64,000 nucleotides of DNA, taken from a virus. Its lineage: Duplodnaviria > Caudoviricetes. The stretch lies in IMG/VR virus record IMGVR_UViG_3300027730_000005. The stretch is one strand, 5' to 3'. Positions 18,952-46,556 of the stretch are shown piece after piece. Each line of letters starts with the position of its first letter. Position 1 is the stretch's first letter. Both the position numbers and the translations under genes were made by a program. The notes beneath the pieces are model-generated. The model searched no databases. It was not told the origin of the DNA and saw only the letters and a program-made list of their open reading frames with translations.

Positions 18952-18952
18952 T

Positions 18953-30164: not shown

Positions 30165-32183
30165 TCAACGGCTGTTTAGCATCTGTGCCATCAGTGCTCG
30201 ACGTTTCACACGACTTTCACTTACGGTCTTTGGTCCAGTGTCCGTTTTTTTAGGTTCAGGAGTAGACTTAGGAATTGAGCTAGGAGTTCTACGCAAACTG
30301 GCATCACTTTTAGCACGTTGTTTGTCCCAGGCCATGCTCAATCGTTGTGCAGCACTCATACGTGCCTCCGCTACACTTTCGTTCTTGCCTGATAGTCCTG
30401 CACGAGCTTCGGCTTTTGTCATTTTATATTGTGCTTGAAATTCAGCATCAGTTAGCTCTCGTAAATCCGTTATTAATTCTTTAACACGGCCTTCTGAAAT
30501 ACCTTTTTTCTTGGCTTCTTCTACATCATACTTGGGCATGGGTCTTTGACCAGCTCGACCTTTGACTCCACGCTTCTCTGTGCTTGGTGGTTTTGTTGGT
30601 GGAACGATATCACCTTGGTATCTAACCTTAGTTGGTTCTGGCTTCTTTAGTCTGTCGGCTCTGGGCATTACTACAATAGGAGCACCTTCCGCCACACCTT
30701 GCTCACCAACTAAATGTTTGGCGTCTTTGCCCCATTTCTTCCACATCCGTTTACCCCAGGTACTTTGATGGGGACTTGGTTTAACATCGTTGCCTAAACT
30801 TTTAGCAAAAGCATACATCATGGCAGCAACGCCTCGGCTCATATAATCGTCATCCACTTCGGTCCATTCACTTTCCAACCATTGATTACCTTTTTCATCA
30901 GATTTCACAACGAAGTGTGCCCAACCAATTACATTTTGACGATCATGTGCTGTTATAGATAATCCTATATCATTCAGATTACCATGTCCAAGAATTCTAC
31001 CCCTAAATGGACGGGCTTTGAACTCAAAGTCATCCATGCGGACTTTCTCAGTTGGTTCGTTCGAAATGTGTTTGTCGAAAATATCTGGGTGTACTACTTC
31101 TTTTATAGCCTTCTTCATATATTTCTTACGCAATTCTGAGCCTTCCACCACACCTTGCTCTTTCATATACTTCTTACGTAATTTTAAGTCTGATGGCGTT
31201 GCTTTTCTGATTAAATTCAAATATTTGTTTACTGGAATTTCTTTTATCTCAATGGGTTTGATTCCTTCTACTCCAGGAATAGAATGAAACTCTCTGCTAT
31301 TGCCACCTTGAACAAACTGTGGTTTTTCATCTGGACCATTGAATGGTAATTTATGTAGATACACATATTCACCTTTTCTAATCTTGCCACTGAACAAAAC
31401 CATTTGTGGATCATTGGGGAACATACCTGTGTCTGACCCAGCAGTAGTTAGACCCATTGCTATAGCAACTTTAGGGTCGGAGGTAGCATAGATAGCATTT
31501 TGATTACTACCAGCCGCACCACCTGTATCTACCGATTGTCTTGGCTCTAGCATAGGAATCTTTTGTCTTGACCCATGCCAAAGATAGGTATTAATAACTT
31601 TGCCTTCCGCCACACCTTCGTTAAACTCACCATCATCGCCCCATGGTTCTCCATAGATTTTTCCCCAGTCTTGGTTAAGTGGTAAATCATTTTCTATCCA
31701 GTATGCACCTAACTGATCTTTTAACTGTGTGTCGCCCTGAAGGTATGCGTCGAATCCTGGTTTTAGTCCTTTTAAGAAACTATCACGGACTTGTTCGAAA
31801 TGTACTATGTCTGCCGCAGCAACTTCCTGTGTACCGGCTTGTGCTAAGTCTTTTTTGGTCCACCCAGCATCTATTAGATCCTGTATTTCTTCTTGTTTTT
31901 GCTGAGCGAACTCATTAACAAAGTTTTCGGTAACAGCGTAATAGCTTGAAGCAGAATTGCCACCAGGGGCAAATTCATTTAATCGACTTCCTGCTACGCC
32001 TTGATCAACTTTTTTCTCTCGTGCCCTACGTTTGGAATAGTCAGTGTCGGCTGGGTTGTTTTTGTTCTTGGCAGGTGGTCGAGTACCTGCAATTCGTTCT
32101 TCTTCACTCTTGCGACGAGTAAAATAATCATTGGCAGCAGAGCCTTCAACGACTGTGGGCTTGAAAAGATTCTCAATAATCAT
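30165..32183 (-). CDS. Modular polyprotein (ART-like HGS module, GNAT module, basic peptides) with GVAE/G linkers
   Basis: LWHGS…IYATSD; YMSRGVAAMMY; repeated (E/K)QGV(A/V)EG. Confidence 0.7.
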   Translation of the reverse strand: MIIENLFKPTVVEGSAANDYFTRRKSEEERIAGTRPPAKNKNNPADTDYSKRRAREKKVDQGVAGSRLNEFAPGGNSASSYYAVTENFVNEFAQQKQEEIQDLIDAGWTKKDLAQAGTQEVAAADIVHFEQVRDSFLKGLKPGFDAYLQGDTQLKDQLGAYWIENDLPLNQDWGKIYGEPWGDDGEFNEGVAEGKVINTYLWHGSRQKIPMLEPRQSVDTGGAAGSNQNAIYATSDPKVAIAMGLTTAGSDTGMFPNDPQMVLFSGKIRKGEYVYLHKLPFNGPDEKPQFVQGGNSREFHSIPGVEGIKPIEIKEIPVNKYLNLIRKATPSDLKLRKKYMKEQGVVEGSELRKKYMKKAIKEVVHPDIFDKHISNEPTEKVRMDDFEFKARPFRGRILGHGNLNDIGLSITAHDRQNVIGWAHFVVKSDEKGNQWLESEWTEVDDDYMSRGVAAMMYAFAKSLGNDVKPSPHQSTWGKRMWKKWGKDAKHLVGEQGVAEGAPIVVMPRADRLKKPEPTKVRYQGDIVPPTKPPSTEKRGVKGRAGQRPMPKYDVEEAKKKGISEGRVKELITDLRELTDAEFQAQYKMTKAEARAGLSGKNESVAEARMSAAQRLSMAWDKQRAKSDASLRRTPSSIPKSTPEPKKTDTGPKTVSESRVKRRALMAQMLNSR

Positions 32184-32184
32184 A

Positions 32185-32847
32185 TTATGCTTCTTCTAAG
32201 TAATCTTGGCTGGGATCTTGCAACTGTGAACGACGATGTGCTCGAAACATCTCTACTGCCATTTCAGCTTCATCTAAGTCTCTAAACTTGCTGGGCAATA
32301 TACGGCCTTGATGGCGAATTTCAAATCCGCGACGTTGATCTCCCCAACACTCTAGACATGTGCCATCTTCTAATGTGATTGTTTTTACAGGACCAGATTC
32401 GCCTACACTAACTGGACTCATCATGGCAGTACCTGACATCATTGGCTCTTGGGATTCTTCCTGTGACTGTTCGTCGTATTCGTCTTGATCGTCGGCCTTG
32501 GCAGGATTCTTATCTTGAATTTCTTGTTTGGCTTTTTGTTCCAGCTGGTCAAGATATTGTGTGAGATCCTTCTTGACTCGGCTTAACATGTCTTCGTCGA
32601 TCTCAGACATGCGTTCAGCCAATGCACTCCGAACAGGCTGAACACTATCGCCAACCATGTTTTTGCCTAATGGTTTCTTTTGATTATCACTGCCCAATAC
32701 TGGTGATACGTTTTCTGGCTTGAACAATGCAGGCAGTTGCGGCACTGACTTTTGTTGCTTGTTCAGCCCTTTTTTTACCGAGACGGGAGTAATGTCTGAT
32801 TCAATTACGGCCAGACGTTTTAGTATGTTTGCAATATCATAGCTCAT
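32185..32847 (-). CDS. Hypothetical acidic protein, possibly head-associated
   Basis: 220-aa ORF inside the array; VIE/S, VGE/S motifs. Confidence 0.6.
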   Translation of the reverse strand: MSYDIANILKRLAVIESDITPVSVKKGLNKQQKSVPQLPALFKPENVSPVLGSDNQKKPLGKNMVGDSVQPVRSALAERMSEIDEDMLSRVKKDLTQYLDQLEQKAKQEIQDKNPAKADDQDEYDEQSQEESQEPMMSGTAMMSPVSVGESGPVKTITLEDGTCLECWGDQRRGFEIRHQGRILPSKFRDLDEAEMAVEMFRAHRRSQLQDPSQDYLEEA

Positions 32848-33284
32848 GCTCGTTCAACCTTCAAATAACTGTTCAGTTGCCAACGATACTTGCCATGAGC
32901 ACTAAGTCGTTCTGCAATAAAATTAGCAATACCTTGTTGATTTTCTTCGTTGGCTACCGCAAAGCAAGCGTTCAGTACATCTAGCATTTGATTGTTGTTG
33001 GCGTACAATTCTTCCAACATTAATCGAGCACGTGGAATTTTGGTCTGTCCAGAAATCTCTGTGAGTTCACTATAACGTTCTAAACTTCCCGGAGCATACT
33101 CACCTAGATAGCGAATGTATTCTGCTGTGGGATCTAGTGCTGAGTAAGCATCTTCGTAAATGTTTTGAAAGAAATCATGCAATTCTCCAAAGTCGGGACC
33201 TTCTACATTCCAGTGAAATTGATGTGCTTTTAAGTAGTAGGCAAAATTAGTTGCCAGGAGTGTTTTTAAATTGTCCGCGAGCAT
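32844..33284 (-). CDS. dps: Dps ferritin-like DNA protection protein
   Basis: KAHQFHWNVEGPDFGELHDFF…AEYIR…HGKYRWQL; start at MLADNLK. Confidence 0.88.
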   Translation of the reverse strand: MLADNLKTLLATNFAYYLKAHQFHWNVEGPDFGELHDFFQNIYEDAYSALDPTAEYIRYLGEYAPGSLERYSELTEISGQTKIPRARLMLEELYANNNQMLDVLNACFAVANEENQQGIANFIAERLSAHGKYRWQLNSYLKVERA

Positions 33285-33459
33285 GCTTGTTCCTTTTGTA
33301 TTCCTTGGGCGTGTTAGGCGTCGGGTCCGTTGTGTATTTACCACTCAGCATAGAACCGCCTTGTCTTGTTTGTATACCCATTGGTTGAACTAACACTGCC
33401 ATAGAGCCAGTGCTGGAGCTGCCTGCGCTTGCGTCTTCCATTATTTCATGTGCTCTCAT
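33247..33459 (-). CDS. Small protein with CTS-like start (MRAHEIME)
   Basis: Start codons ATGAGAGCA shared with array members. Confidence 0.6.
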   Translation of the reverse strand: MRAHEIMEDASAGSSSTGSMAVLVQPMGIQTRQGGSMLSGKYTTDPTPNTPKEYKRNKHARGQFKNTPGN

Positions 33460-33748
33460 GTTCAATCCTTAACAATGTGTGGTTCACCATGTGTGCGCCC
33501 GGCGGTCCATCTTTGATGCATGTATTGCTCACTTGAATGCGCCCTTGTGCCGGCGGAACCAATTCTCGGCGTAATTCATATTCGCCCGGCGGTGCATAAA
33601 TCTGTATTAGTTCTTCTAGATACTCTTCTCGCCAGACCCATGTACGTTCTGAAAACAATTCTCCGCCTACATATAGTCTATAATTAGGTGACGGTCCGTC
33701 CCAGTCGACTGAAACATCAGCATTGATCAACACAAACTGTGCAGTCAT
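33446..33748 (-). CDS. Hypothetical protein
   Basis: ORF track. Confidence 0.65.
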   Translation of the reverse strand: MTAQFVLINADVSVDWDGPSPNYRLYVGGELFSERTWVWREEYLEELIQIYAPPGEYELRRELVPPAQGRIQVSNTCIKDGPPGAHMVNHTLLRIEHEST

Positions 33749-34038
33749 GTGTCGGATATGTCAGGAGTAACTGCTCGGTGCAGACGATGTCTTGATGCAG
33801 AACTTAAAAGATGATCATCGTCAGAGTCTGGTTCATATCCACCATAACGACTCGGGTCGGCACGATGTTTAATTCCAGTTTTGAGTTTTTCTATTTTGCC
33901 CATTTTAACTGGGGTTTTGTCTGGTGGAGAATTTGGACCACGGCGACCACTGTTAGAATTACCAGCTTCCTCAACATTCTTTTCGCCTAGGAATCCCATA
34001 CCTTCACGTGGGTGATTAAATAGTTCGTATATCAACAT
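33745..34038 (-). CDS. Hypothetical protein (MLIYELF start, VEE/A linker)
   Basis: ORF track. Confidence 0.6.
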   Translation of the reverse strand: MLIYELFNHPREGMGFLGEKNVEEAGNSNSGRRGPNSPPDKTPVKMGKIEKLKTGIKHRADPSRYGGYEPDSDDDHLLSSASRHRLHRAVTPDISDT

Positions 34039-34040
34039 GA

Positions 34041-34367
34041 TTATTCAGTCCAGGGCAGTGGAAGTATTACCACTGGAGGGATAATCTGCAAGTCAATTTG
34101 ATCTTGTACTTGTAACTCTACAGCGTTTTTATCGACACCATTGGTCCAGATCCAGTCAAGCACTTGTTGTTGTGTTAGATCAACGTAAGGTGTAAAAGAT
34201 GCAGAAGCCAACGGAATCTCGCAGGCGGCGAGTGCTGATACCCGGGCGCTGTAGCCGTCTTGTACACCACTGCATGCCCAATAAACTCCAAATACCACAT
34301 CCGGATAACCGTCTGCTTCGGGATAGCATGTCATCTCAGTCACGGTCCAATTGATTGTTGCGGCCAT
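34041..34367 (-). CDS. Small tail fibre-associated-like protein
   Basis: INWTVTEM…DVVFGVYW…FTPYVDLTQQQVLDWI…LPLPW resembles common phage tail accessory proteins. Confidence 0.45.
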   Translation of the reverse strand: MAATINWTVTEMTCYPEADGYPDVVFGVYWACSGVQDGYSARVSALAACEIPLASASFTPYVDLTQQQVLDWIWTNGVDKNAVELQVQDQIDLQIIPPVVILPLPWTE

Positions 34368-34390
34368 TGTAATTTACTTTCTAAAATCTG

Positions 34391-35035
34391 TTATGCCATC
34401 TGCGTGGAAGGAGACAATGCTGCGGCCAGGGCCATACGTTTTTGTCTATGTGCGCCCGAACTTCGTTCATAGTATTGATCTACAATAGCAGCAGCATCTT
34501 CTGCTGTTTTTGCACTCTTCAATCTTTGCCCTGCGTTTGCTTCCTTGTTGTTCAATTCGTACTGTACAAACTCTAATTGGTCTTGTAAGCTAGAATCTTG
34601 TAATGGTTTACGCATTGCATTAGCAAAATCTTGTTGTCGTGATCCGCGCCATTGTGCAATACCATATGCTTTCTCGCCGGGATTCCATGCAGCAGGATTG
34701 AGATTTTGACCTGATTCTGCTTGTAGGTTGGCCACTAGTCCAGCAGCTTGTTCAGGTGACCATCCTTGTTGCATAAAGTAGTCTAGAGCAATTTTTGCAT
34801 TGCCTGCTGTGCCACCACCTGCTCTATTAGATGGTCCAGACATACCAGATCCAGGCAAACGTATTCGAGATCCAGGCTGAATATCATTAGCACTAGCAAA
34901 CTGTGGATTTTGCCACATGATGCCATCTACTGTGGTATCGTAGGACTTTGCTATGTTCGGCAAGGAATCTCCAGATCTCACAGTATAGATATTGTTAGAG
35001 CTAGTGGCTTCAGACAAGAAATCAAATAACTTCAT
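34391..35035 (-). CDS. LysM plus phage tail lysozyme-like muralytic protein with CTS-like start
   Basis: YTVRSGDSL LysM; AAGLVANLQAESG…YGIAQWRGSR. Confidence 0.8.
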   Translation of the reverse strand: MKLFDFLSEATSSNNIYTVRSGDSLPNIAKSYDTTVDGIMWQNPQFASANDIQPGSRIRLPGSGMSGPSNRAGGGTAGNAKIALDYFMQQGWSPEQAAGLVANLQAESGQNLNPAAWNPGEKAYGIAQWRGSRQQDFANAMRKPLQDSSLQDQLEFVQYELNNKEANAGQRLKSAKTAEDAAAIVDQYYERSSGAHRQKRMALAAALSPSTQMA

Positions 35036-35036
35036 A

Positions 35037-35999
35037 TTACCCTTTTAACATGGTAGACATGCGACGCATTTGATCCACGCTGTATTCAAAATTTGATTGT
35101 TTACTAGTGCTTTCTTGAAGTTTTGCCGGTGCTGTGCCGCCTGCTGGTATACCTAATTTTGCTCTACCTTGATCAATTACAGAAGGCTGTGTTGCTATTC
35201 TTTGACTAACTGACTGATTAGTTGGATTTGCTGGTGCCGCTGGTTTTGTTGGAGTAGCAGCCTGACCCGTCATATTAGCGGGCGGCGCCTTGGCGTAGCT
35301 GCTACGCTCTTGAGCCGAGGCTGGTCCTCTGAGGTTAGCTGCAGGGCCGCCAGGTTTTTGTGCAGACAAAATAGCGCCTGCTGTGGTAGGCCCAATAATA
35401 CCGTCAGCCGTTAAACCGTTAGCTGTTTGAAATTTCTTAATAGCATCAACATTTGGTTTATTATTCGTTAATAGTCCCATTCTAGATGCATACGCAGCGA
35501 TTGCAGGGGACATTGATTTATTAGCAGCTGGCTTAGCTGGACTTGCTGCTTGTGTAGGTGCTGCTGGTGTAGATGCGGCAGCATTGACTGCCGCTGCTTG
35601 TCCCATACTCATATCTGTAGCACTTGCAGCAGTATCGGCAGCATTGACTGCCGCTGCTTGTCCCATACTCATATCTGTAGCACTTGCAGCAGTATCGGCA
35701 GCATTGACTGCACCTGCTTGTCCCATACTCATATCTGTAGCACCTGCAACAGCGTCAGCCTTGTCAGCGGCAGCCTGTGCTGCTGCCTCTTCACCGGGAT
35801 TACCTACTCCAGTTGCAGAACTTGTTGCTGCTGGTTTACCTTTATTTGGTGCTCGCATGGCAATGTAAGGGTCATTGATGTCGGGTTTGCCGCCACCGCG
35901 GGTGTACCATGCTTGATCTTCTGGACTCATGGCTGCAAATTTGGCAGCATCGGCACCTTGGTACGGATTTGCTTCTCTTAAAAATTCTATTGATCTCAT
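35037..35999 (-). CDS. Ala-rich repeat protein with peptidoglycan-binding domain and CTS-like start
   Basis: MRSIEFLRE; AIKKFQTANGLTADGIIGPTT. Confidence 0.75.
   Translation of the reverse strand: MRSIEFLREANPYQGADAAKFAAMSPEDQAWYTRGGGKPDINDPYIAMRAPNKGKPAATSSATGVGNPGEEAAAQAAADKADAVAGATDMSMGQAGAVNAADTAASATDMSMGQAAAVNAADTAASATDMSMGQAAAVNAAASTPAAPTQAASPAKPAANKSMSPAIAAYASRMGLLTNNKPNVDAIKKFQTANGLTADGIIGPTTAGAILSAQKPGGPAANLRGPASAQERSSYAKAPPANMTGQAATPTKPAAPANPTNQSVSQRIATQPSVIDQGRAKLGIPAGGTAPAKLQESTSKQSNFEYSVDQMRRMSTMLKG
35581..35760. repeat. Three tandem 60-bp (20-aa) coding repeats
   Basis: Two identical copies plus one diverged copy (ATDMSMGQAxAVNAADTAAS). Confidence 0.92.
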
Positions 36000-36037
36000 G
36001 TGATATTCCTTTATGAATGACCTATGCTTTATTTATT

Positions 36038-36679
36038 CTATTTGCCCTGTGCTGCCAATCTTGCACCATTGTTAAAACTGTTGCTGTGACTGGCAGCATT
36101 TCTGTTGCCACGTGCTTTTGACCATGCATAACCAGCTCTGTGCCCAGAACAATCTTTGGTGCAAGGCGACCCCAAAAATGATAATTCATCCAACTCTTGT
36201 TTTCCAGTGTATCGTTTAATTATGGACATTGATTCCTGATCATTCAACAGAGATGCTAATCCAGGATGTAGTGGGCGTGGCCAGTCGCCAAACTCTACCC
36301 ATTCAGATCCTTGAGTTTCCCAATTTAACATTGGTTTAAATTCGTGAGCTACTATGGCTAAAAAATTGTAGTATCTAAATCCCGACGGATGCCTGAACAC
36401 ATACAACGGGATCAGTTTAAGTGGGCCGTTATACCCTGCTTCTTCTTTGACTTCTCGTTTGACAGCATGTGCTGGATTTTCACCAGCGTCGATTGCACCG
36501 CCCCATGTTCCCCAGGTGTTAGGTTGCTCCACTTGTGATGATCTATGAGCTATACAAATCCGATTGGTATCGGCTGCCAGGAACAAACAACCAGCAGCTT
36601 GCTTGCCCCAGAATCCTGTTTTCTCCAAAGCATCACGATGTTCTTTATCTGACTCAGTCACAAATTCGGTTGCTCTCAT
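36038..36679 (-). CDS. NUDIX hydrolase with CTS-like start and small C-terminal module
   Basis: GGAIDAGENPAHAVKREVKEEAG Nudix box; MRATEFVTE; LDE/LSFLGSPC…. Confidence 0.8.
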   Translation of the reverse strand: MRATEFVTESDKEHRDALEKTGFWGKQAAGCLFLAADTNRICIAHRSSQVEQPNTWGTWGGAIDAGENPAHAVKREVKEEAGYNGPLKLIPLYVFRHPSGFRYYNFLAIVAHEFKPMLNWETQGSEWVEFGDWPRPLHPGLASLLNDQESMSIIKRYTGKQELDELSFLGSPCTKDCSGHRAGYAWSKARGNRNAASHSNSFNNGARLAAQGK

Positions 36680-37155
36680 TTGGCATCTCCAAAGATTGGT
36701 CCACCGACATACTGACCATTCTGACTTAACACACCATTGCGTAGATTGTTGATAATGTTATCAGTGATGTTTCTGCGACGGAAATGCGGCAAAAAAATAT
36801 GTGTTTCTACAGGACGATCGCCCTGCTCTGCTTGGATAGCATACATCCTGTGACGCCCGTCATGATCACGCACCTTGGCTTCTAAATTGAAATCATCGTT
36901 CTCCCAAGCTTCAGGAACTGCTATGGTTAAAAACGGTGCTCCAAACCCTTTATCATTGATCTGTCGGCGTAGATATTGTATAGTTTCTTTTTCGTCAGGA
37001 GAGTTAACATCCAAGGGCAAGCTGAGTTTGAGGAATGTGCTGGGTCGCATGACTGTGCGTAGACCAAAGTAATCTACATCAGCATTGTGCGGAACAGCAC
37101 CGAGACCTTGCCGATTGTCTATCTTTAGTTCCGTTATGAATTCCTTTGATCTCAT
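36676..37155 (-). CDS. ParB/Srx-like domain protein with CTS-like start
   Basis: MRSKEFITE; HDGRHRMYA. Confidence 0.55.
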   Translation of the reverse strand: MRSKEFITELKIDNRQGLGAVPHNADVDYFGLRTVMRPSTFLKLSLPLDVNSPDEKETIQYLRRQINDKGFGAPFLTIAVPEAWENDDFNLEAKVRDHDGRHRMYAIQAEQGDRPVETHIFLPHFRRRNITDNIINNLRNGVLSQNGQYVGGPIFGDAK

Positions 37156-37355
37156 GTGTCTATCCTGTGTACATTGGTCACTATGCTGTCTTTGCCGTAT
37201 TGAGCTTGCAGTAATAATCGAGCCATGGCAGGTGACTTGGCAAATATAGCCACATCTATACTGGTAGTATACGAAGGATTTTTGACCCGCACAGACGCAC
37301 TATACACATGAAATCCCGGAAGCAAGTCTTCACAGAGAAATTCTGTTGCTCTCAT
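37152..37355 (-). CDS. Small protein with CTS-like start
   Basis: MRATEFLCE. Confidence 0.65.
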   Translation of the reverse strand: MRATEFLCEDLLPGFHVYSASVRVKNPSYTTSIDVAIFAKSPAMARLLLQAQYGKDSIVTNVHRIDT

Positions 37356-39064
37356 CAGCAGTTCCACTTTCTCAACGCTAATGCTTTGCGTGTGGGTTTG
37401 CCATTGGGTTTTTTCATTGGCCCTTTGACTCCGCCCATCCTGGCACAGAATGATTTACGACGCTTGGCTGCTTTTGATCCTGGCTTGAGTTTGCTGGGCT
37501 TGGTAGTAACTGCCATTTGTAATTTTGAGCCTGGATTCTCTCTACGATAGCTAGCAACACCTTTGGCATTGAGACCGCCCTTTTTGCTCTTACCTGCGCT
37601 TCTACGCCAAGCTGCTGTTTCAAGAATGATTTCTTCATCGGTGAAGAAGTTGAATATGTCTTCAGTAAGACCACGATCAGCCATGGCCTGTTCAAAGTCA
37701 TCAAATATTGCATGGGCTTGTTCTAGGCTGTATACGCTTTCTGTTACACCTTCCTCTACACCCGACTGCATCTGTTGTTTGACTGCACGAGCAACATCTC
37801 CCGCCAATGCGCCAGGGTCATTATCGCCACCGTAGTTGAGCACACTCATGATTGCATTGTGAATCACACGGTCATCTGCACGACGAGCCATATTGGGATA
37901 CATGCGCTCAAACTCAGCATACACTTGATCAGCTAGGTCATCGTATTCACCGTTGAAGCCTTCATCCAGGCCATCTGCTTGTACAGCCCCTTCGCCGTCG
38001 GCATCAAAAGCTACCATTTCTACTTTGGGCCACATACGTGCAGGCACATACAGAATACCCGAAGTTTCGTCATGATCGATCTGGTCGCCAAAGCGAGCCA
38101 TTACTGCATTATATGCCCGTTCACTGTTAACGCTAAAACCCACAGTGTCCGTATCGTCAATACCGCTGTATCCGCCTTCCGCCACACCTTGCTTCTTGAG
38201 AATATCCAGTGCGTGTTTTTCCATCTGTTTTTTGGTAATAGGTTTACCGGGTGCTTCCTTACCTTTGAAATAATCAGAACCTTTTTTATCTCTTGAACCA
38301 TAGGTGCTGTGACTTACTTTGCCATCACGACCGGGTTGTGGTGCTGATTTGTCCATTTCATTCAAGCCTTCCGCCACACCTTGCTCACTTGCTTTGGCTT
38401 TGGCTTCGGCCCTGGTACGACTGTATCCCCGTGCTGTTGCTTCTCGTTCTTGGTTAGGATATATAGATATTGCAAACATTTTTCCATCTTTAACAAAGTA
38501 CCAATCTGTTGGATCTAGATCGTGTCTTTCGTCATCACCGCGATTGAACGCTCCCCTTACTCCGCGGAAAGGCCTGCCTCTGCCTTCCGCCACACTTTCT
38601 TTTTTGGCAGTCTTTGCAGCATCTTTCCAGGCCTGTGCTGTGGGGGCCTTGGGGCTGTCGGCATCTCTACTGGTACCGGCCTTCTTGCGCTTGTTTACAT
38701 TGTAGTATAACCCTTTGTTCTCCTCTGAGATACTTTCGTTAGGCACACAGTTTCTTACCTGCTTGCCAGTCACAGCTGACTTTTTTGTGCCTTCTGCATG
38801 TTTTCCTGGCCAGCACTTGGTGTAACCATTGCTATCTTTCTGACCCTTTTTGATCTCCATGATATTGCCGTGTGTTTTGCACATACCACAGTCTTCACAC
38901 ACCATTTCCATCACAACACTTTCGTTGTGTTTCTTCTTGCCAGCACAATGAGCACGTTGCGAAAAGCCTTTTGGATGAGAGCAATTGATACTGCTTTTGT
39001 ATTTTTGACTCCAGCCTTCATCTAATTTTTTGATTTTTCCAGTTATAAATTCATTTGATTTCAT
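37355..39064 (-). CDS. Polyprotein of short modules separated by GVAE/G, LDE/G, ILE/T linkers; C-terminal DUF6321-like module
   Basis: Three nucleotide-level copies of the GVAEG repeat; C-terminal GGLNAKG…RRKSFCARM…WNC. Confidence 0.7.
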   Translation of the reverse strand: MKSNEFITGKIKKLDEGWSQKYKSSINCSHPKGFSQRAHCAGKKKHNESVVMEMVCEDCGMCKTHGNIMEIKKGQKDSNGYTKCWPGKHAEGTKKSAVTGKQVRNCVPNESISEENKGLYYNVNKRKKAGTSRDADSPKAPTAQAWKDAAKTAKKESVAEGRGRPFRGVRGAFNRGDDERHDLDPTDWYFVKDGKMFAISIYPNQEREATARGYSRTRAEAKAKASEQGVAEGLNEMDKSAPQPGRDGKVSHSTYGSRDKKGSDYFKGKEAPGKPITKKQMEKHALDILKKQGVAEGGYSGIDDTDTVGFSVNSERAYNAVMARFGDQIDHDETSGILYVPARMWPKVEMVAFDADGEGAVQADGLDEGFNGEYDDLADQVYAEFERMYPNMARRADDRVIHNAIMSVLNYGGDNDPGALAGDVARAVKQQMQSGVEEGVTESVYSLEQAHAIFDDFEQAMADRGLTEDIFNFFTDEEIILETAAWRRSAGKSKKGGLNAKGVASYRRENPGSKLQMAVTTKPSKLKPGSKAAKRRKSFCARMGGVKGPMKKPNGKPTRKALALRKWNC

Positions 39065-39088
39065 TTAGTTCACCTTTTTCTAACAGTT

Positions 39089-40174
39089 TCATTTGTTTTT
39101 TGCTCTTCCAGCTTTCATATTGGCCAACCAGTGTGCCATGCGTTGTTTTTCACCAGAACTGTTCTTGGCAGTTTTTCTCAAACTACTTACACTGGCTTTG
39201 GTATTTACTCCCACACGTTTGGCCAGACCCTTGCGTCCAGGATTACGGCCGTCAGCAAAGTTTTCGTCAACCGAAGACTCATTGGATGTTGCAACAGGTT
39301 GTTTGGCCTTGTAGATATCTTCCCATTTGTCTGAAATAGCATTCTTTAATTCCAGCGTGGATTTAAAATTATTGTCTTGCATATACTTAATTATCCACAC
39401 AGCACTAGCACGGTCTCCTGAATCAGGCTTGCGAGCATTGCTTAGATCCACGCTGAGATTTTGATCTTCTGATGGATTACCATAGTACCGCATGGTCTTT
39501 AACGCACGTTTTGCTCTATCACTTAGATGTGCTTCGTCGCTCTTGGTAATTAACTCAATCCAGGGCTTTACAAAGTCTGTGGGCTTGCGGGACGATCCAG
39601 CTGGTGTTGGTCCACGTAATACATCACGGGATTGGCCTGGTATCTGTGCTCGACGTTTGTTCAGCAATCGCCATGCTGCTTCGTCTGTGTAGAAAAACAC
39701 AGGTAAGCCTTGTTGCTTGGCTGTGATCAGGATCTGTCGTGTTTCTGGACTGCGATATTCATCTTGTTCTTTGAGCAACACATGAACTTCAGTCACAGGA
39801 GTGATTGGAATAGTGGGCTCTTTGCTAAACACACGGTCTTCTGCTTCTCTGGTTCTTGTACCATTGCTGTGTAACCATGCACGGTCCCAGTAGTCAATGG
39901 GTTTCACAATGTATCGAGAGTTAAACCAGTCACCATTGAGTTTGAACATCACAGCGCCTGATCCCACCCAGCGATGATAATCGCCAGTTATTGTTCGTGT
40001 CAAACTAAGAAAGTATGGATATCCAGCAGGAGCATACTGTTCTTCGCTGCGATTGCCGGTCACGCTGGCCAATTCAAAGTTGCCGGATTGCAGTATTCTT
40101 AACCCAGCTCTGATACTGGTGTAATGAAACAATACATCAGTTGCTCGTTCAATTAAAAATTCCGTTGCTCTCAT
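39089..40174 (-). CDS. ADP-ribosyltransferase-fold candidate with CTS-like start and basic C-terminal module
   Basis: MRATEFLIE; LFHYTS…YFLSLTR; VDE/NFADG…. Confidence 0.5.
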   Translation of the reverse strand: MRATEFLIERATDVLFHYTSIRAGLRILQSGNFELASVTGNRSEEQYAPAGYPYFLSLTRTITGDYHRWVGSGAVMFKLNGDWFNSRYIVKPIDYWDRAWLHSNGTRTREAEDRVFSKEPTIPITPVTEVHVLLKEQDEYRSPETRQILITAKQQGLPVFFYTDEAAWRLLNKRRAQIPGQSRDVLRGPTPAGSSRKPTDFVKPWIELITKSDEAHLSDRAKRALKTMRYYGNPSEDQNLSVDLSNARKPDSGDRASAVWIIKYMQDNNFKSTLELKNAISDKWEDIYKAKQPVATSNESSVDENFADGRNPGRKGLAKRVGVNTKASVSSLRKTAKNSSGEKQRMAHWLANMKAGRAKNK

Positions 40175-40539
40175 TATACATACCTTGCTAGTTCATCTTC
40201 ACCTAAATCTTGTATGCGATTGGGCGGGATTTTAGTTGTGGAGAAGTACCATCCGTGGTCATATGTCAATGGAATACCCGTCACATCAATTTGCAACAAT
40301 GTCAATGGATCATCGCTACCCTCTGACTTGGCGTACATCCATCCACCGACCATACTTAGTTCTCTTTGTAACTTGACCTTATCACCTTCGTCTACAACCA
40401 TAAATGCTTTGCCATCATACGGATCTAGCCCAGCATATAGAATTTCTTCTGCGTTTTCAGTACTGGTAATATGGTACGCAGTTTTAAACTCATGGTCATG
40501 ATGTGTCCTTGATTCAGTGACAAATTCAGTTGCTCTCAT
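40174..40539 (-). CDS. Small ADP-ribosyltransferase-fold candidate with CTS-like start
   Basis: MRATEFVTE; YHITSTEN..EIL..GLDP…LLQID…IPP..I. Confidence 0.5.
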   Translation of the reverse strand: MRATEFVTESRTHHDHEFKTAYHITSTENAEEILYAGLDPYDGKAFMVVDEGDKVKLQRELSMVGGWMYAKSEGSDDPLTLLQIDVTGIPLTYDHGWYFSTTKIPPNRIQDLGEDELARYV

Positions 40540-43500
40540 TTGGGTTCCCATTGCATACTTTTACTACCTTTAACAGTAGGAGTAAACCCTTGACCTCTGT
40601 AGAACTTGGTTAATTTACTTTGACTCACTTGTCCTTTGTCCCAAGGAAACAGTGTCAAGCTGATGCCATCTTCTCTTGCCATGGCTTGTAGTTCTTGCAT
40701 GGCACGTGACCCAACACCTTGACGTAGCGGATATGCTTGAATCCATTTGACTTCAACTGCGCCGCGCTTGCTAAAGCTAGGAACAAGTTCAAACATAGCA
40801 AACTGTTGGTCATCGCCTTTGCCCCAGACCATAACGTGATTGTTCTGCATGGTGTATGGATACTTTGCGTAGACTCGTTCAATCCATGCCTGTGCAGCAT
40901 CATTGTTGCCTAGTTTGATTCTTATTGGCTCTTCTTCTTCGGCTACATCTTTCATTAGATGTTTAGCATCGCCGGACTTCTTCCAAGCATCCCACATGGC
41001 CTTGCCAGGCGGCAATTGATTTCTACTTGGTACAATAGTGTTACCCAACATTCTCACATACGCATAGATGTTACGTGCTATACCGCGGCCTTGATATTCA
41101 AGTTTCAAGCTGGTAACTGCTGACACTAGACCATTTTTGCTGGGTCTAAATTTTGCAAGACCTATCTGTTGATAATTGTCGTCTAGCACTTTGACTTGAA
41201 AATATTCTTTACCATTTATTTCAATCCCAGTGGCACGATATGTCAGCCCATCAAAAATTTGGGTGTCGTTGAACGCTGGATTGAAAACATCTGGATTGAT
41301 AGTTTCATTTAAGTTGTTGGCCATTACTTGTGGTAAGAAACTGGCGGCAATGTGTTGGCAAGTGTTAAAAATGTCAGCATTATCAGTGACCTGCAGATTG
41401 AATGGATAGTCTGTGGTAGGATGCTGTGTGGGGTCTTGCCACCCAGCATAACATTTTTCAATACCAAAGTCAGCTAACAAATCAGTGCAACTCTCTCCAT
41501 ACCTCTCATCCATGTCATGCACACAAGGACTCAATGTAGTGACCATGATGGCATTGGGACCAATACGACCGTGACGTTTGAGATGCTGGTCTATGGCCAC
41601 TCGTTCAGCATGGCGTCGTGTTCCGTTGAGCCCAGGCAAGTTGATAGCATAAGTGTGATTGTTTTTGTTATCAATCAAACAAGCAGCCACACGTCCATAC
41701 TTTTCTGGATCAGTCTCATGACCACGATGTATCATGTTGATGCACTTTTTCAGCACATTATCTAGTTTACCAAGTTTTGTGATCTCTTGGCTTTCATCCA
41801 TATCTTCTTCACCAGGCTCGTCTAGGTCGTGTATGGGCAAGCCAAGGCGTTTGAGCTTGTGACTGTACATGTTTTCTAGCTCTTCGCTGCCAAACGCCAA
41901 CACAGTATGCGGCGGGCCTTGATTGTAATGAGACTTGTCGGCTTGATCAAGATCGCTAATGTCTTGTCCCAACTGATACCAATCTTGGGTGTCGCTCACA
42001 TCCACTTTGATTGTGCCAGCGGGCATTTTGGGAGGTGTTTCAGGACCAGTTGGTTTTTGATTGCCTAGAGCATCCAGGTCACGACGTAATCGTTGTTCTA
42101 ACACTGTGATGTTTTCTGACACTGATTGAGAACGTAGTCTCACTGAGAAGTTACTGGCATCCACTTCTGGATTTGCCTGCATTGCAGTAGCCACCCATTC
42201 TTGACCTCGACGCCAGGCTTCTGTTTGATTTGCTGCCTGTATTACAAATACTGGTTGATTGGAAGATCTATTGTATACTTCCCACTGTGTTTGTGCCATT
42301 GGGATATCTAATTCAACGTCTTCTACTCCTGGAATTGGGGTGGATGTGTATTGGTATTGTTGTTGGCTTGCTGCAACACCCATCTCTGGTACTACTGTAA
42401 CTCCAGCCTGCATACGCCCAGGATTACTACGCATCCAGTTTATGGCCACACGGTTGGCATCACTCTGTACATTGCCTACTCCCGAGAAGCGATGTATTTC
42501 TTGACCGTCCGGATTCAAGATCAACCAGTTGCCAGTGAATGTTTGCTGACCTTGACCCGGACGAGTTAAAGTTTGCGGTATGCCAACGTCAACAATGCCA
42601 CCTTGTGCTGCATCTGAATTATTGCCCTGGCGGGTACGAACACCGTACAATTCAGGAGCTTCGCCACGCATGCCTAACGCCAAACGTGCTTCTTGTTCAG
42701 CTTCGGGTCTACTGGTATTGCTCAACTCTCTCACAGTAGAGTTGTCGCTGATTCTATAGATTTCCCATGGACCTGGGCCAGTGGGCACCAAGTTGCGTGG
42801 CTGTCCTTCGCGTGGTACATTTTGTGTGCTAACGAATGCATTTGATGATCGCGCTGGCACTGTCGACGCCCGGAACAGGTGAGAACGGCCAGCGGTGTTG
42901 CCAAATATATCTGGTCTTGCTTCTCCAGCAGCTCTTATAGCGTTTAGCTCAGATGACGCACGAATTTGTATTTCTTGCCCAGGATTACCTTGTGGGCTTA
43001 CATACCAGATTGGTTGTTCAGTCTGTTGTGGTTCAATTTCACGCACTTCAATGTCAGTTATCATACGAGAATTTTGTTCACGACCTTGAGTTATGAACTG
43101 TTCAGCAGCCTCACGACTTGGGAATCTACGCAACACATTGTTGTCAGACTGGCCAGGAGCTCTAGCAAAGCGGTTCATGTCATTCATCCAAATGCCCCAG
43201 TTGCCTGTACTTGGTTGTGCGGCAGATTGTGGGCCAGGTTGTTGCTGATCACCACCACGGGCAACCACAGTGCCAGCACGATCAACTAAACTAAAGTCAT
43301 GTGGATTATTTTCCCCTGAAACAAACTGTCTAAACTTTTGTACAGCGTCTTCTTGACTTGATGCTGTGATCGATGATCTATTGTAACCGGCTCGAGCATC
43401 ATAAACGCTATAGGACAATGATGGCTTCGGATCCTGATATGGTCGTAGCGGTTTTGCCTGTAGAGTGTTCCGTGCGCTGGCCCAGTCTGGGTAGTTGCCT

Positions 43501-46500
43501 GGTTCTATAGCCTTGGCGATGGCTTCTTCCTTGCTAGAAGCAACAATTTCAATGCTGGCAAAATATCCAGGACGACTCACATCCCACCAATATTTTTGTC
43601 CCTTTGGTGTCTTGCCTTTGGCAAGATTACGGGCGAGATTCTGTTGCTCTAGTTCTTGAAAAGTTGCTTTTCTAAAGTCTTTGATGGCCTGTTGCGTTTC
43701 TTTGCTTAGTTTGTCGCCGACTTCTTTGCTATTGCCCTGCAACGATACCATGTACTTGGCAAACTCTTGAATCATATCACCATATTCGTCCTTGGTACCG
43801 TTAGGATTCAACAGTTTGTACAGCTTCTTGAGATATTCTTGGCGATACTTTTCAGGATCCATCGCAGCGTCCAGGGCCACAGTAAATCGTAATAGGGTAT
43901 CTTCAATCTTGCTGAAGTTTGAATCCAACCAGTCGCCACCCGGACTCCGGAATTCAATGTATCCTGTCTTGGTATTGATACTGGTATATTTTTCTGTAGT
44001 GCCTGTGTGAATGGCCTTGGTGGCAATGTCTTCCATGTGCTCACGCATCTTGTCCATGACCTGCGGAGCAATATCAGGATTGCGTTTCAGCATGGTTTTA
44101 ATTTTGCCAATTGCTGACTTGGCATAGTTATTGCCTGAACGTCCAAACAGTTCTAGCACATATTCATCGCCCATGAGCAGGGCCAGTTTGACATAGTCCA
44201 GTTTGTCAAGACTGTAGTTGGGTACTGAAATGTTGATATGCAAGCCAGTGCTGTCATTGGTATAGCAACCAGACTTGTCTGCCCAAGCCTTGACCTTGTT
44301 TAGATCTGAAATCATTTCATCTATGGGCATAGGCGGACTAACAAATTCTAAACCTTCGTCGCCAGGGTTGTCGCCTTCTAAACTGCCGTCAGGTTCCACA
44401 ACATAGGTACCTGCTTCACGACGGCCGCCATGGTAATTTCTACTGGCGTTCACAGGTTTACCCATGTAACTGGAGAATTCATCAGCCACTTGATCTATAT
44501 CCATGTCACCGTCGTTGCCCTCATTAGCGTCAGTGTAATAGGGCCATTCAATATCAAAGTTGCTTTCGATGTCACTCATGGTTTGATATTTGTCATCCAA
44601 GAAACTGCCTTCATCGTACTCGTCTCGTTGTTCTTCTGCAAACGCTTCAAATGCATCATTGAAGACACGGCCTTGATCTTCAAAAGCTTCCAGCACAAAC
44701 TGTTCTTGTAATTCATCAAGTCTGGCACTCAGCAGTTGAGAGAAGTCTTCGCTCTCTTGTGGCAAGTCAGGATTGGCATCCATGATTTCGTCACGAGCTT
44801 GTAGCATGGCTTCATCACGATCAAACAAGTCATTAACGTTGACAAAGTCACGCATGTAATCTACTCCATCGCGTGTCCAAGCTTCAGCAGTTTGTTCCTG
44901 CTGCCATTCCTCGTACTCGTTTTGTATTTCTTCCATTAGGTCATCTACTGCACGGCGTCCATTGTGGTCACCGTCATGGAAAAAGTCTCGAATGTCACTG
45001 AAGCTTCTGGTACGTTGATCCTGATCGTAGTCTGGTTCCCAGTCAGGTTCTTGTTCATCGACCCCAACATCGGGCACAATCATTTCAAATTCCATGCCTG
45101 CCTGTGCGCCTGTTTGTGCTGCTAACTGACGCAGATTGGTGCTGGTCATCTTGATTTCAAACAGATCTTTCTCTTTGAACTCTCGCAACATCTTGTTTAA
45201 ACCGGCTGTGAGTAATGCAGGATGACCTTGTGAATCTGTTTGTAATCCAAGTTTGTTGGCTTCCTTGCCCACAGCACCTGGACGCACATCTCGGGTCAAG
45301 GCCATGACAAATCTTGGATCGCGTGCCTGTGCCTTTGTGGGTATGTATCCTGACGCTTCTTCCAGTGTGACCCCATCAAACATTTCAGGCTGTTCTTCAG
45401 CCCACTGTCGCATGATACGGCCAGCCATGGCGTTGGCTTGGTCTTCCCAAGGGCTACCAGTTTCACCAGCATCTATAGGCAGGGGATTTCTTTCATCCTG
45501 CTGACGATGTGTCATCTCATGGGCCATGGTGCGAAGTATATCCAACACATGGCGTCCCGCGGTGGCCAAGATCAGTGTGTTGCTTTCTGGTTCGTATTGA
45601 CCAAAGCTACCGTTCTCTTGACTCCATTCTGGTGTTGTTTCCAAACGCAATCTAGGTGGATTCTCTAATTTAAGTTTATCTACACAACTGGCATAGAAAC
45701 GATGTAGGATCTTTTTCAAATGGTCAAGTTCTACACTTTCATCCACTTGTTCTGATTCAGTACCAGCAGGGTGATCTTGGCCAGCATACGCAGTACCTGG
45801 ATACCAGTAATCACGCATGCCGTAATTGACTTTCTTTCTGGCAGCAGGCTTACGATTTAAACTCAACTCACGATCTTGTATTGCTGTCTTGGCATCTTTT
45901 AATTTGCCAATGCAACCCATATTTCTCAACAATTTAAATGCAATGTTCTCGCAGCCAAACTCACCATTCTTTTCCAGGCCAGTTTGGCGCATTGTTTTGA
46001 TCTTGTCCCACAGCTGATTCACAGCATCTGCATTGCCGGACTTGATAGCTGAATGTATTCTGGCATCAAGATCAGCTGTTTTGTGTTGTACACAAGAGTC
46101 ATCTATGCTAGCACGACGGCGCTGTGGAACTTGTACCCAGTCACCATTCTTTACGCTGTAAATGCCTTGACTCACATGCTTTTGATCACTGGGCTGCACA
46201 TACAGTTCCACTGGAACGCCAGCAATCTTTATGTCATGCTCGGCATTATACTGATATTTTTTTGCATTGAACAGTTCTTGATACACAGGATCGTCAGGCA
46301 TGTCCACCACAAGGTGTAGATCAATGTCTGAATGGCGAGTATAAGAATAGGCAGCATTGCTACCTGATATGGTAATGTCCTGAATGTTGAGATCATCAAC
46401 ACCCAGGAATTCTTGAAAATTTGACGCAATTGCCAGCAACTTGTCACGCACATCAGGTAACAAGTGCTCGTCTGACCCCCACAAACGGGGGTTCAAACGT

Positions 46501-46556
46501 TGATGGAATTTTACAGCATCGGCGAGATTAAAGTTGTCAAGATCATGGAAATTCAT
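40536..46556 (-). CDS. 2006-aa polyvalent protein (Pol-beta NTase, zincin, amidoligase, repeats, deaminase, two GNATs)
   Basis: GSNA…SDIDLH; AHEMTH; EFEM/EPDGSL/LEFVSP/TGLH; HAE…LSPC…C; YQGRGIA; RQGVGS. Confidence 0.8.
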   Translation of the reverse strand: MNFHDLDNFNLADAVKFHQRLNPRLWGSDEHLLPDVRDKLLAIASNFQEFLGVDDLNIQDITISGSNAAYSYTRHSDIDLHLVVDMPDDPVYQELFNAKKYQYNAEHDIKIAGVPVELYVQPSDQKHVSQGIYSVKNGDWVQVPQRRRASIDDSCVQHKTADLDARIHSAIKSGNADAVNQLWDKIKTMRQTGLEKNGEFGCENIAFKLLRNMGCIGKLKDAKTAIQDRELSLNRKPAARKKVNYGMRDYWYPGTAYAGQDHPAGTESEQVDESVELDHLKKILHRFYASCVDKLKLENPPRLRLETTPEWSQENGSFGQYEPESNTLILATAGRHVLDILRTMAHEMTHRQQDERNPLPIDAGETGSPWEDQANAMAGRIMRQWAEEQPEMFDGVTLEEASGYIPTKAQARDPRFVMALTRDVRPGAVGKEANKLGLQTDSQGHPALLTAGLNKMLREFKEKDLFEIKMTSTNLRQLAAQTGAQAGMEFEMIVPDVGVDEQEPDWEPDYDQDQRTRSFSDIRDFFHDGDHNGRRAVDDLMEEIQNEYEEWQQEQTAEAWTRDGVDYMRDFVNVNDLFDRDEAMLQARDEIMDANPDLPQESEDFSQLLSARLDELQEQFVLEAFEDQGRVFNDAFEAFAEEQRDEYDEGSFLDDKYQTMSDIESNFDIEWPYYTDANEGNDGDMDIDQVADEFSSYMGKPVNASRNYHGGRREAGTYVVEPDGSLEGDNPGDEGLEFVSPPMPIDEMISDLNKVKAWADKSGCYTNDSTGLHINISVPNYSLDKLDYVKLALLMGDEYVLELFGRSGNNYAKSAIGKIKTMLKRNPDIAPQVMDKMREHMEDIATKAIHTGTTEKYTSINTKTGYIEFRSPGGDWLDSNFSKIEDTLLRFTVALDAAMDPEKYRQEYLKKLYKLLNPNGTKDEYGDMIQEFAKYMVSLQGNSKEVGDKLSKETQQAIKDFRKATFQELEQQNLARNLAKGKTPKGQKYWWDVSRPGYFASIEIVASSKEEAIAKAIEPGNYPDWASARNTLQAKPLRPYQDPKPSLSYSVYDARAGYNRSSITASSQEDAVQKFRQFVSGENNPHDFSLVDRAGTVVARGGDQQQPGPQSAAQPSTGNWGIWMNDMNRFARAPGQSDNNVLRRFPSREAAEQFITQGREQNSRMITDIEVREIEPQQTEQPIWYVSPQGNPGQEIQIRASSELNAIRAAGEARPDIFGNTAGRSHLFRASTVPARSSNAFVSTQNVPREGQPRNLVPTGPGPWEIYRISDNSTVRELSNTSRPEAEQEARLALGMRGEAPELYGVRTRQGNNSDAAQGGIVDVGIPQTLTRPGQGQQTFTGNWLILNPDGQEIHRFSGVGNVQSDANRVAINWMRSNPGRMQAGVTVVPEMGVAASQQQYQYTSTPIPGVEDVELDIPMAQTQWEVYNRSSNQPVFVIQAANQTEAWRRGQEWVATAMQANPEVDASNFSVRLRSQSVSENITVLEQRLRRDLDALGNQKPTGPETPPKMPAGTIKVDVSDTQDWYQLGQDISDLDQADKSHYNQGPPHTVLAFGSEELENMYSHKLKRLGLPIHDLDEPGEEDMDESQEITKLGKLDNVLKKCINMIHRGHETDPEKYGRVAACLIDNKNNHTYAINLPGLNGTRRHAERVAIDQHLKRHGRIGPNAIMVTTLSPCVHDMDERYGESCTDLLADFGIEKCYAGWQDPTQHPTTDYPFNLQVTDNADIFNTCQHIAASFLPQVMANNLNETINPDVFNPAFNDTQIFDGLTYRATGIEINGKEYFQVKVLDDNYQQIGLAKFRPSKNGLVSAVTSLKLEYQGRGIARNIYAYVRMLGNTIVPSRNQLPPGKAMWDAWKKSGDAKHLMKDVAEEEEPIRIKLGNNDAAQAWIERVYAKYPYTMQNNHVMVWGKGDDQQFAMFELVPSFSKRGAVEVKWIQAYPLRQGVGSRAMQELQAMAREDGISLTLFPWDKGQVSQSKLTKFYRGQGFTPTVKGSKSMQWEPK

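Follow-up and report, generated by a model that had tools for sequence, protein, structure and literature searches.

A repeated linker at module boundaries of two putative capsid-cargo polyprotein genes in a T4-like lake jumbo phage

Two modular genes with a repeated linker

The 64,000-nucleotide (nt) stretch of DNA analysed here (the window; IMG/VR record IMGVR_UViG_3300027730_000005) derives from an uncultured giant T4-like lake phage (Caudoviricetes). Two of its genes, gene A (protein P0001) and gene B (protein P0002), each encode a short leader followed by a series of small modules, and one short linker sequence recurs between the modules of both (Table 1). This linker is conserved as DNA beyond what its peptide accounts for, and the limits of exchanged modules coincide with it.

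A search of the window for the 15-mer AGGTGTGGCGGAAGG, with up to one mismatch allowed, returned six matches (four exact and two with one mismatch), all on the minus strand; 100 dinucleotide-preserving shuffles of the window returned none. Each of the two open reading frames (ORFs) holds three copies, and all six copies are read in the same frame, as (E/K)(Q/E/S)-G/S-V-A/V-E-G. The prefix GAGCA stands before three of the six. These counts agree with an initial annotation of the DNA, made from the sequence alone, which had described six copies in two genes. Within the window, the strict peptide motif is confined to the P0001 and P0002 ORFs. Both proteins also contain variant sites (a slash marks the putative cut): LDE/G at amino acids (aa) 16 and 368, ISE at aa 114, LNE at aa 236, VEE/G at aa 438, and VTE/S at aa 442 of P0002, and VVE/G at aa 13, LNE at aa 70, and ISE/G at aa 564 of P0001. 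All of the variant linkers listed in the initial annotation (LDE/G, VTE/S, LNE, VEE/G, and ISE) are thereby located in the two proteins. Additionally, P0001 carries a decayed linker, QGVAG, at aa 58–62 (31996–32010, minus strand), with the codons CAA GGC GTA GCA GGA; both the Glu and the codon signature described below have been lost from it.

A protein identical to P0001 recurs widely, on 11 contigs of one index and on at least 24 of another. Its leader belongs to a second class, whose relatives start with MIIDNLF.. or MFINDLF.. and continue to a hydrophobic-x-E site. Module A1 has no Pfam match. Module A2 is likely an ADP-ribosyltransferase (ART), as judged from an AlphaFold2 (AF2) model with a predicted local distance difference test (pLDDT) score of 85.6. 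The top Foldseek matches of this model are Arr (E-value 1.4e-3), and nearly all of its top 50 matches in VIA-align belong to the ART superfamily, including Tpt1/KptA (Z 8.3), Rhs ART toxins, pertussis S1, cholera toxin, diphtheria toxin, and PARPs; VIA Z-scores below ~8 can reflect a common arrangement. Three motifs of A2 (H10-G-S, Y39-A-T, and R104-E105) show no variation among 25 homologues. The predicted structure of module A3 (domain at aa 377–491 of the AF2 model) is a GNAT fold: the top 50 Foldseek matches are all GNAT (probability ~1.0, best E-value 7e-3), and the Atlas features score is 0.94, with GNAT in 10 of 10 named matches. When the modules were scanned in isolation, A2 remained below Pfam thresholds and A3 had no Pfam match at E ≤ 1; a PHROGs domain scan returned families of unknown function only. 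The AlphaFold model of P0001 residues 180–510 shows two confident domains, and all three linkers of gene A lie in segments with pLDDT < 50, one between the domains and one on each outer side. In the model, the linkers thus fall in low-confidence, presumably disordered, segments outside the folded domains.

Homologues of P0002 start with MKANEFITE/KW.., and the N- and C-terminal modules of this protein are conserved across 79 IMG/VR loci, whereas its middle is variable. The minimal form of the family is leader-B1-DUF6321 (~235 aa); other members have modules inserted between B1 and DUF6321. The DUF6321 match (PF19846; aa 491–567 of P0002) scores 77.1 bits against a gathering cut-off of 28.5 (E-value 1.7e-21). 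Several further fragments have an isoelectric point (pI) of 9–12, and three are acidic. Cyanomyoviruses also carry DUF6321 and B1 modules, and in Synechococcus phage DSL-LC02 the homologue is located between terS and terL. This DSL-LC02 protein (L001:5428-7425, 665 aa) combines a B1-like module, DUF6321, and small basic modules with VKE/G and VVE/G sites, and its N-terminus does not resemble the capsid-targeting leaders discussed below.

A close relative of the region was not found among 50,697 phage records (megablast). In tblastn searches against deposited phages, P0001 had no match and P0002 matched via its end modules only. By family-B DNA polymerase (PolB), the nearest isolates are jumbo phages, namely Sinorhizobium phage Phosso (49 per cent), Agrobacterium phage Atu_ph07 (46 per cent), and Rak2-like phages (~43 per cent). 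With P0002 as the query, the 79 loci were recovered on freshwater contigs in IMG/VR, the longest of them 356 kb. One complete relative, G002 (352,754 bp), is syntenic with the window over its 35–115 kb region, and the PolB proteins of the two are 79 per cent identical.

Table 1. Features of genes A and B and of the surrounding island in the window (slash, putative cut; leader type and domain assignments are predictions).
Feature	Coordinates	Strand	Evidence or remark
Gene A (P0001, 672 aa)	30165..32183	-	ORF and translation; leader and 5 modules, putative cargo polyprotein
Gene A leader, aa 1-13, MIIENLFKPTVVE/G	32145..32183	-	Second leader class
Module A1, aa 14-193, acidic, no assigned function	31605..32144	-	Decayed QGVAG at aa 58-62; VTE/N at aa 86
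Linker 1, NEGVAE/G	31603..31617	-	Exact 15-mer; left breakpoint of A2
Module A2, aa 194-347, ADP-ribosyltransferase-fold	31143..31604	-	AF2 model and structure search
Linker 2, EQGVVE/G	31141..31155	-	One mismatch; right breakpoint of A2
Module A3, aa 348-499, GNAT acetyltransferase fold	30687..31142	-	AF2, Foldseek, Atlas features
Linker 3, EQGVAE/G	30685..30699	-	Exact 15-mer
Basic modules A4 (aa 500-606, pI 9.7) and A5 (aa 607-672, pI 11.7)	30168..30686	-	ESVAE/A between them
Gene B (P0002, 569 aa)	37355..39064	-	Leader and ~8 small modules
Gene B leader, aa 1-16, MKSNEFITGKIKKLDE/G	39017..39064	-	Resembles T4 capsid-targeting sequence
Module B1, aa 17-114, Cys-rich, basic	38723..39016	-	Conserved across clade and in cyanomyovirus protein
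Linker KESVAE/G	38583..38597	-	One mismatch
Linker EQGVAE/G	38367..38381	-	Exact 15-mer
Linker KQGVAE/G	38175..38189	-	Exact; left breakpoint of B5 in L075 and L068
Module B5, aa 297-368, acidic, ends LDE/G	37961..38176	-	94% nt identity in L068 and L075, inside unrelated proteins
C-terminal module, aa 483-569, DUF6321, pI 11.9	37358..37618	-	Pfam; phrog_4689; preceded by IILE/T
Surrounding cargo island (putative)	33745..40551	-	Further genes with leaders like the capsid-targeting sequence
Second-class leader MLIYELFN	33745-34038	-	Leader pattern
LysM and lysozyme, MKLFDFLSE/A	34391-35035	-	Pfam and leader
PG_binding, MRSIEFLRE/A	35037-35999	-	Pfam and leader
NUDIX, MRATEFVTE/S	36038-36679	-	Pfam and leader
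Island ORFs with leaders	36676-37155; 39089-40174	-	Leader pattern
Island ORF, leader at internal Met	40174-40539	-	Leader pattern

Conservation of the linker core and exchange of modules

Codons were counted in 89 non-redundant GVAE[GAS] junctions from the window, G002, and the IMG/VR loci, with long ORFs as the background. GGT encodes the Gly in 96 per cent of linkers (38 per cent in the background), GTG the Val in 84 per cent (27 per cent), GCG the Ala in 89 per cent (7 per cent), and CAA the preceding Gln in 97 per cent (70 per cent). The exact 12-mer GGTGTGGCGGAA occurs in 57 of the 89 junctions, against 0.6 per cent expected from codon usage. On the nucleotide logo, conservation is limited to a sharply bounded core of 17–18 nt, (A)CAAGGTGTGGCGGAAGG(C), in which third positions hold 1.35–1.7 bits, compared with ~0.1 bit in the flanks. 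The linker 14-mer has 100 non-redundant matches in 1.59 Mb of related DNA, every one of them in the GVAEG frame of an ORF of at least 150 aa, and there are no intergenic, antisense, or other-frame copies. The identity of synonymous codons to which the initial annotation had drawn attention is therefore not accounted for by codon bias. Repeats of 15–20 nt are short, and one could regard them as functionless products of chance, codon bias, or a very recent duplication. Such an origin is hardly credible: the shuffled windows were devoid of matches, the 12-mer is ~100 times commoner than codon usage predicts, and it recurs at 89 independent junctions with unrelated flanks on dozens of contigs. Chance, codon bias, and recent duplication are excluded by the shuffles, the codon counts, the logo, and the frame of the 14-mers.

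When both genes were compared with relatives by blastn, the ends of the homologous blocks coincided with linkers. Specifically, module A2 is 96–97 per cent identical in two loci (L028 and L062), where it lies inside otherwise unrelated proteins; at nucleotide resolution, the outer edges of both flanking cores are precisely where identity falls from ~100 per cent to the random level. Identity drops likewise at the core that forms the left edge of B5 in L075 and L068. Homology of module B2 stops at aa 156–161, and nucleotide homology of the C-terminal module of gene B begins at aa 481–482. The first 40 residues of A1 reappear behind a GVAE/G linker in L008, and A5 reappears behind a GVAE/A linker in L008 and L068.

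The modules also recur in many other contexts. Full-length P0001 as a query against IMG/VR found 40 loci, almost all of which match at ~aa 189–349 only; a contig identical to the window was not found there. In a collection of 5.8 billion proteins, A2 is present in at least 193 proteins of 369–1176 aa, with GNAT, ParB, NUDIX, DUF6321, and others as partners. A hydrophobic-x-E site closely precedes A2 in 99 of 110 cases and closely follows it in 102 of 105, and GVAE occurs 216 times, compared with 1.7 expected. DUF6321 lies ahead of B1 in three loci (L048, L055, and L078). Module order, the comparison of which across relatives had been proposed in the initial annotation, is thus not fixed, and modules are permuted, inserted, and swapped.

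Contigs from lake metagenomes that match the window perfectly before diverging do so at strict linkers (31599, 38194, 38365, 38383–38387, and 30685) and at variant sites (37963, LDE/G; 31931, VTE/N; and 31999, the decayed linker), which amounts to seven linker or variant-linker sites. One lake variant diverges within the leader of gene A, at 32164, and a lake variant has an intact linker where P0001 has the decayed QGVAG. This evidence consists of loose ends, and the contigs show co-occurring variants, not rates. Apparent joints within 30.5–31.6 kb, or from 37.96 kb to 38.36 kb, were considered as deletions and rejected, as their sides of 20–29 nt represent cross-mapping between linkers.

Because identity ends exactly at the edges of the 17–18-nt core, these alignments are best read as showing the core to be a recombination junction. 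The initial annotation had suggested that the repeat provides microhomology for module shuffling. As a pattern, shuffling at the repeat is well supported, the repeat being the exact breakpoint of module exchange; microhomology is a candidate mechanism for it. All copies of the repeat are direct and on the coding strand, an arrangement that does not correspond to shufflon-type inversion. The scanned ORFs in the neighbourhood of the genes included no recognizable recombinase, in a search that was not exhaustive. It is conceivable, albeit at rather long odds, that the 18-nt core is a dedicated dual-coded recombination signal, i.e. an in-frame cassette junction recognized by a recombination activity of the phage or its host. 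On this view, the Q-G...G of the peptide would be conserved as a consequence of the DNA signal, and only V-x-E would be needed for release by a protease. That the core acts as a Chi-like site is speculation.

Conservation of silent sites might instead serve the mRNA or its translation, for instance through a ribosome pause caused by the rare GCG codon, a Shine–Dalgarno-like AGGUG core, or a two-layer G-quadruplex (GG-N3-GG-N-GG-NN-GG), with recombination as a side effect. GCG is indeed the rarest Ala codon, yet it prevails in the linkers, and the site is located at domain boundaries. The preferred codons, through their third-position Gs, create four GG runs on the coding strand (GG-TGT-GG-C-GG-AA-GG, e.g. 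at 38367–38381), which fit the minimal two-layer G-quadruplex pattern, and the ViennaRNA minimum free energy structure of the 18-mer is a G-quadruplex. However, this quadruplex is predicted to be weak (−1.36 kcal/mol), neither a quadruplex nor a rare codon explains the preference for GGT (96 per cent) and CAA (97 per cent), and the breakpoints are directly observed at nucleotide resolution. A role at the mRNA level explains less than a recombination junction does, and we consider it unlikely. An internal translation start behind the AGGUG-like core was rejected upon inspection, because there is no start codon at a suitable distance.

Leaders, a putative cargo island, and head genes of relatives

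In T4, the prohead protease gp21 removes a 10-residue capsid-targeting sequence (CTS), MKTYQEFIAE, from internal proteins (PMC8442874). The pattern of the leaders in the window, M-R/K-x-x-E-F-I/V/L-x-E, resembles this sequence. In an island at ~30.2–40.6 kb, seven of the 13 ORFs, including gene A, were flagged by two leader patterns, and two more, gene B being one of them, have variant leaders; the patterns were absent from the other minus-strand ORFs listed for the window. N-termini in the island include MKLFDFLSE, MRSIEFLRE, MRATEFVTE, MRSKEFITE, MRATEFLIE, and MRATEFVTE. In the whole genome of G002, only eight ORFs match the leader pattern, six of them in the syntenic island (54–74 kb). Far from that island, at 263121–263878, G002 has two small adjacent ORFs with perfect leaders, MRAREFIAE and MRAREFITE. 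The run of CTS-like leaders suggests, at the level of sequence, that a whole capsid-cargo island surrounds both genes. In some A2 proteins, moreover, a leader site stands directly before A2 in the place of the linker, as in MRAQEFVTE/GKVINTYLWHGS (P0034, VTE/G).

All five of the large relatives examined, which are 95–100 per cent complete according to CheckV, encode a Peptidase_S77 (T4 gp21) homologue and, directly behind it, a scaffold-like protein and the Gp23 major capsid protein. The gp21-like protease predicted in the initial annotation is therefore present in the clade, including in one relative that is syntenic with the window, and the gene order points to T4-type head assembly. In these relatives, the capsid protein starts ...EALLE/GLNG, the protease has GIIVE/G close to its N-terminus, and the scaffold is dense in hydrophobic-x-E/A/S/G sites. 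The capsid gene itself shows irregularities: the Gp23 match is in two pieces in G001 (79516–80499) and contains an in-frame TAA in G004 (193317–194306), so that the gene may be interrupted. In two relatives, the capsid gene is closely followed by ORFs that resemble HNH-type and GIY-YIG-type homing endonucleases, as judged by eye (L088:2624-3403 and L089:2657-3412).

We consider it fairly probable that P0001 and P0002 are capsid-cargo polyproteins of a jumbo phage related to T4, and that they are loaded into the head, cut at the linkers, and diversified by exchange of modules at the core. A leader resembling the T4 CTS would direct each protein into the core of the prohead, where a gp21-type (Peptidase_S77) protease would cut after Glu in hydrophobic-x-E contexts, chiefly at the QGVAE/G linkers. 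As a result, an ART-fold and a GNAT enzyme, acidic modules, and very basic peptides (DUF6321 among them) would become separate small proteins that travel in the head and are presumably ejected along with the DNA. The linker core would double as a DNA element for in-frame exchange of modules between genes and between phages, either by short-homology recombination through the phage machinery or by a dedicated activity. Each transfer of a cassette would copy the core consensus anew, and the junctions that keep the consensus would consequently be those that spread.

Several observations weigh against this proposal. The gp21-type protease was seen in relatives, one of them syntenic with the window, and the window itself covers 64 kb. 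T4 gp21 cleaves after Glu in I/LxE motifs (PMC12991175), with a preference for I or L at P3, where the linker has Val; conservation of the Q, the G, and the P1' G of the linker exceeds the known needs of gp21-type proteases. The CTS-like leaders of the window use varied codons without comparable fixation, and a role as a cleavage site alone is therefore insufficient to explain the conservation of the DNA. The leader of gene A is less like the T4 CTS, the cargo island is located among replication genes and not among head genes, and the T4 late promoter TATAAATA is neither enriched in the window nor present upstream of the genes. Finally, packaging, cleavage, ejection, and homogenization of the junctions are all steps that we infer from sequence. 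A scan for sigma-70 promoters and terminators was uninformative.

Some of these observations would also suit a model in which the junction is a DNA recombination site only, the linker stays uncleaved, and the proteins act intact as polyvalent proteins, packaged or not. Conservation of the nucleotides is above any protease requirement, the linker is a putative cleavage site by its sequence motif, and certain polyvalent proteins, N4 virion RNA polymerase among them, are packaged unprocessed (PMC5512222). On the other hand, the translated junction is always hydrophobic-x-E followed by G, A, or S, boundaries without GVAE are also hydrophobic-x-E (LDE/G, IILE/T, and VTE/N), the cut site of a leader can directly stand in for a linker, and relatives encode a gp21-type protease. 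In view of these features, we regard intact, uncleaved proteins as a doubtful alternative, although one that deserves consideration.

Alternatively, the linkers could be cut not by the prohead protease but by a host protease, or through self-processing after injection. Processing after delivery has been proposed for polyvalent proteins in some systems (PMC5512222), and a site as specific as QGVAEG looks like that of a dedicated protease. However, scans with Pfam and PHROGs detected no peptidase domain in either protein, the site conforms to the T4-type rule and agrees with that of the capsid propeptide in the relatives (LLE/G), and the leaders point to loading into the prohead. Cleavage by another protease is, in our view, quite improbable, and cleavage by a prohead protease remains the reading that we prefer.

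Beyond the two genes, the window encodes PolB, a clamp loader, a Clp-like double-AAA ATPase, a QueE-like radical-SAM enzyme, and a 2006-aa protein; no Rfam families or tRNAs were detected in it. The 755-aa Clp-like ATPase (50224–52491, minus strand) matches phrog_4871 ("ATP-dependent protease", E-value 1e-235) and is 71 per cent identical to its G002 homologue over the aligned region. The QueE-like enzyme and a nucleotide-sugar epimerase (9543–10403 and 17998–19017, minus strand) hint at 7-deazaguanine DNA modification and sugar metabolism. The 2006-aa protein (40536–46556, minus strand) has dCMP/cytidine deaminase, amidoligase, and GNAT matches, and its N-terminal 233 aa correspond to phrog_36119. 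Its N-terminus, MNFHDLDNFNLADAVKFHQRLN, resembles that of several linker-bearing A2 proteins, MNINELESYKLSDAVKF.., and it has no GVAE linker; a 2085-aa ORF in L010 has two.

Relation to known systems

The putative cargo proteins resemble the internal proteins IPI–III and Alt of T4 in their short N-terminal leader, which has the same core (E-F-I/V-x-E) and ends in hydrophobic-x-E, in the presence of non-homologous cargo genes that have only the leader in common and lie in a variable hotspot, and in the combination of small basic proteins with an ART enzyme; relatives, moreover, have Peptidase_S77 and Gp23. Alt is a packaged ADP-ribosyltransferase that is trimmed at both ends by gp21 (PMC9026906), and polymorphism of the ip genes among T-even phages was reportedly described by Repoila et al. 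1994 (as cited in PMC12373910 and PMC3012670). The cargo of T4 consists of single proteins with one cut beside the leader (Alt being trimmed also at its C-terminus), whereas here one polypeptide comprises up to ~8 unrelated modules. Between these modules stands a near-invariant internal linker, which is fixed as DNA and serves as the exchange point; in the literature consulted, neither feature is described for T4.

A second likeness is to polyvalent proteins, in which 2–15 unrelated conflict-related domains are found per polypeptide and which are predicted to be delivered together with the DNA (Iyer, Burroughs, Anand, de Souza, and Aravind 2017, PMC5512222). As in those proteins, unrelated effector domains (ART, GNAT, NUDIX, ParB, and deaminase) occur here in many combinations; P0001 itself unites the predicted ART and GNAT domains with further modules, and the partners of A2 vary across the proteins that contain it. 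For polyvalent proteins, processing is proposed to occur via a built-in metallopeptidase (MPTase), in contrast to the fixed site with conserved DNA seen here, which resembles that of a prohead protease. The word "linker" is absent from the main text of PMC5512222.

In phages phiKZ, 201phi2-1, and SPN3US, many head proteins are substrates of a protease related to gp21, which cleaves them after Glu at a short motif, sometimes at multiple sites per protein (PMC9026906). The sites in those phages are loose three-residue motifs that serve mostly for propeptide removal, whereas the linker described here is a repeated six-residue sequence between shuffled modules. DNA-level conservation has not been reported for the phiKZ, 201phi2-1, and SPN3US sites.

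Short DNA repeats reportedly also flank variable units in the PeSL cassettes of T4-type phages, which Arbiol et al. are said to have described in 2010 and for which modular shuffling in hyperplastic regions is said to have been proposed. PeSLs are, reportedly, intergenic promoter/stem-loop elements that shuffle whole genes; the junction described here differs in being coding and in frame, and in shuffling protein modules inside genes. In the literature searched, no mention was found of GVAEG in a phage context or of DUF6321, and a search on capsid targeting, polyproteins, and prohead proteases returned nothing similar. If anything here proves to be new in kind, it would be the dual-coded junction; the rest extends what is known of T4 internal proteins and Alt and of polyvalent proteins.

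If cleavage does occur at the linkers, a single gene would supply the host with several independent enzymes and DNA-binding peptides upon injection, and the paradigm of T4 internal proteins and Alt would come to include large, exchangeable arsenals in jumbo phages that abound in fresh water. The junction would be a rare case of one 18-nt sequence that apparently holds two codes, a protease release site in the peptide and an in-frame recombination address in the DNA. It makes domain shuffling in the arms race directly testable, and it suggests a natural design rule for loading multiple cargos into T4-type capsids. If the core is in fact a dedicated recombination signal, co-infecting phages would trade ready-made effector modules in an integron-like manner, at the level of domains and inside genes.

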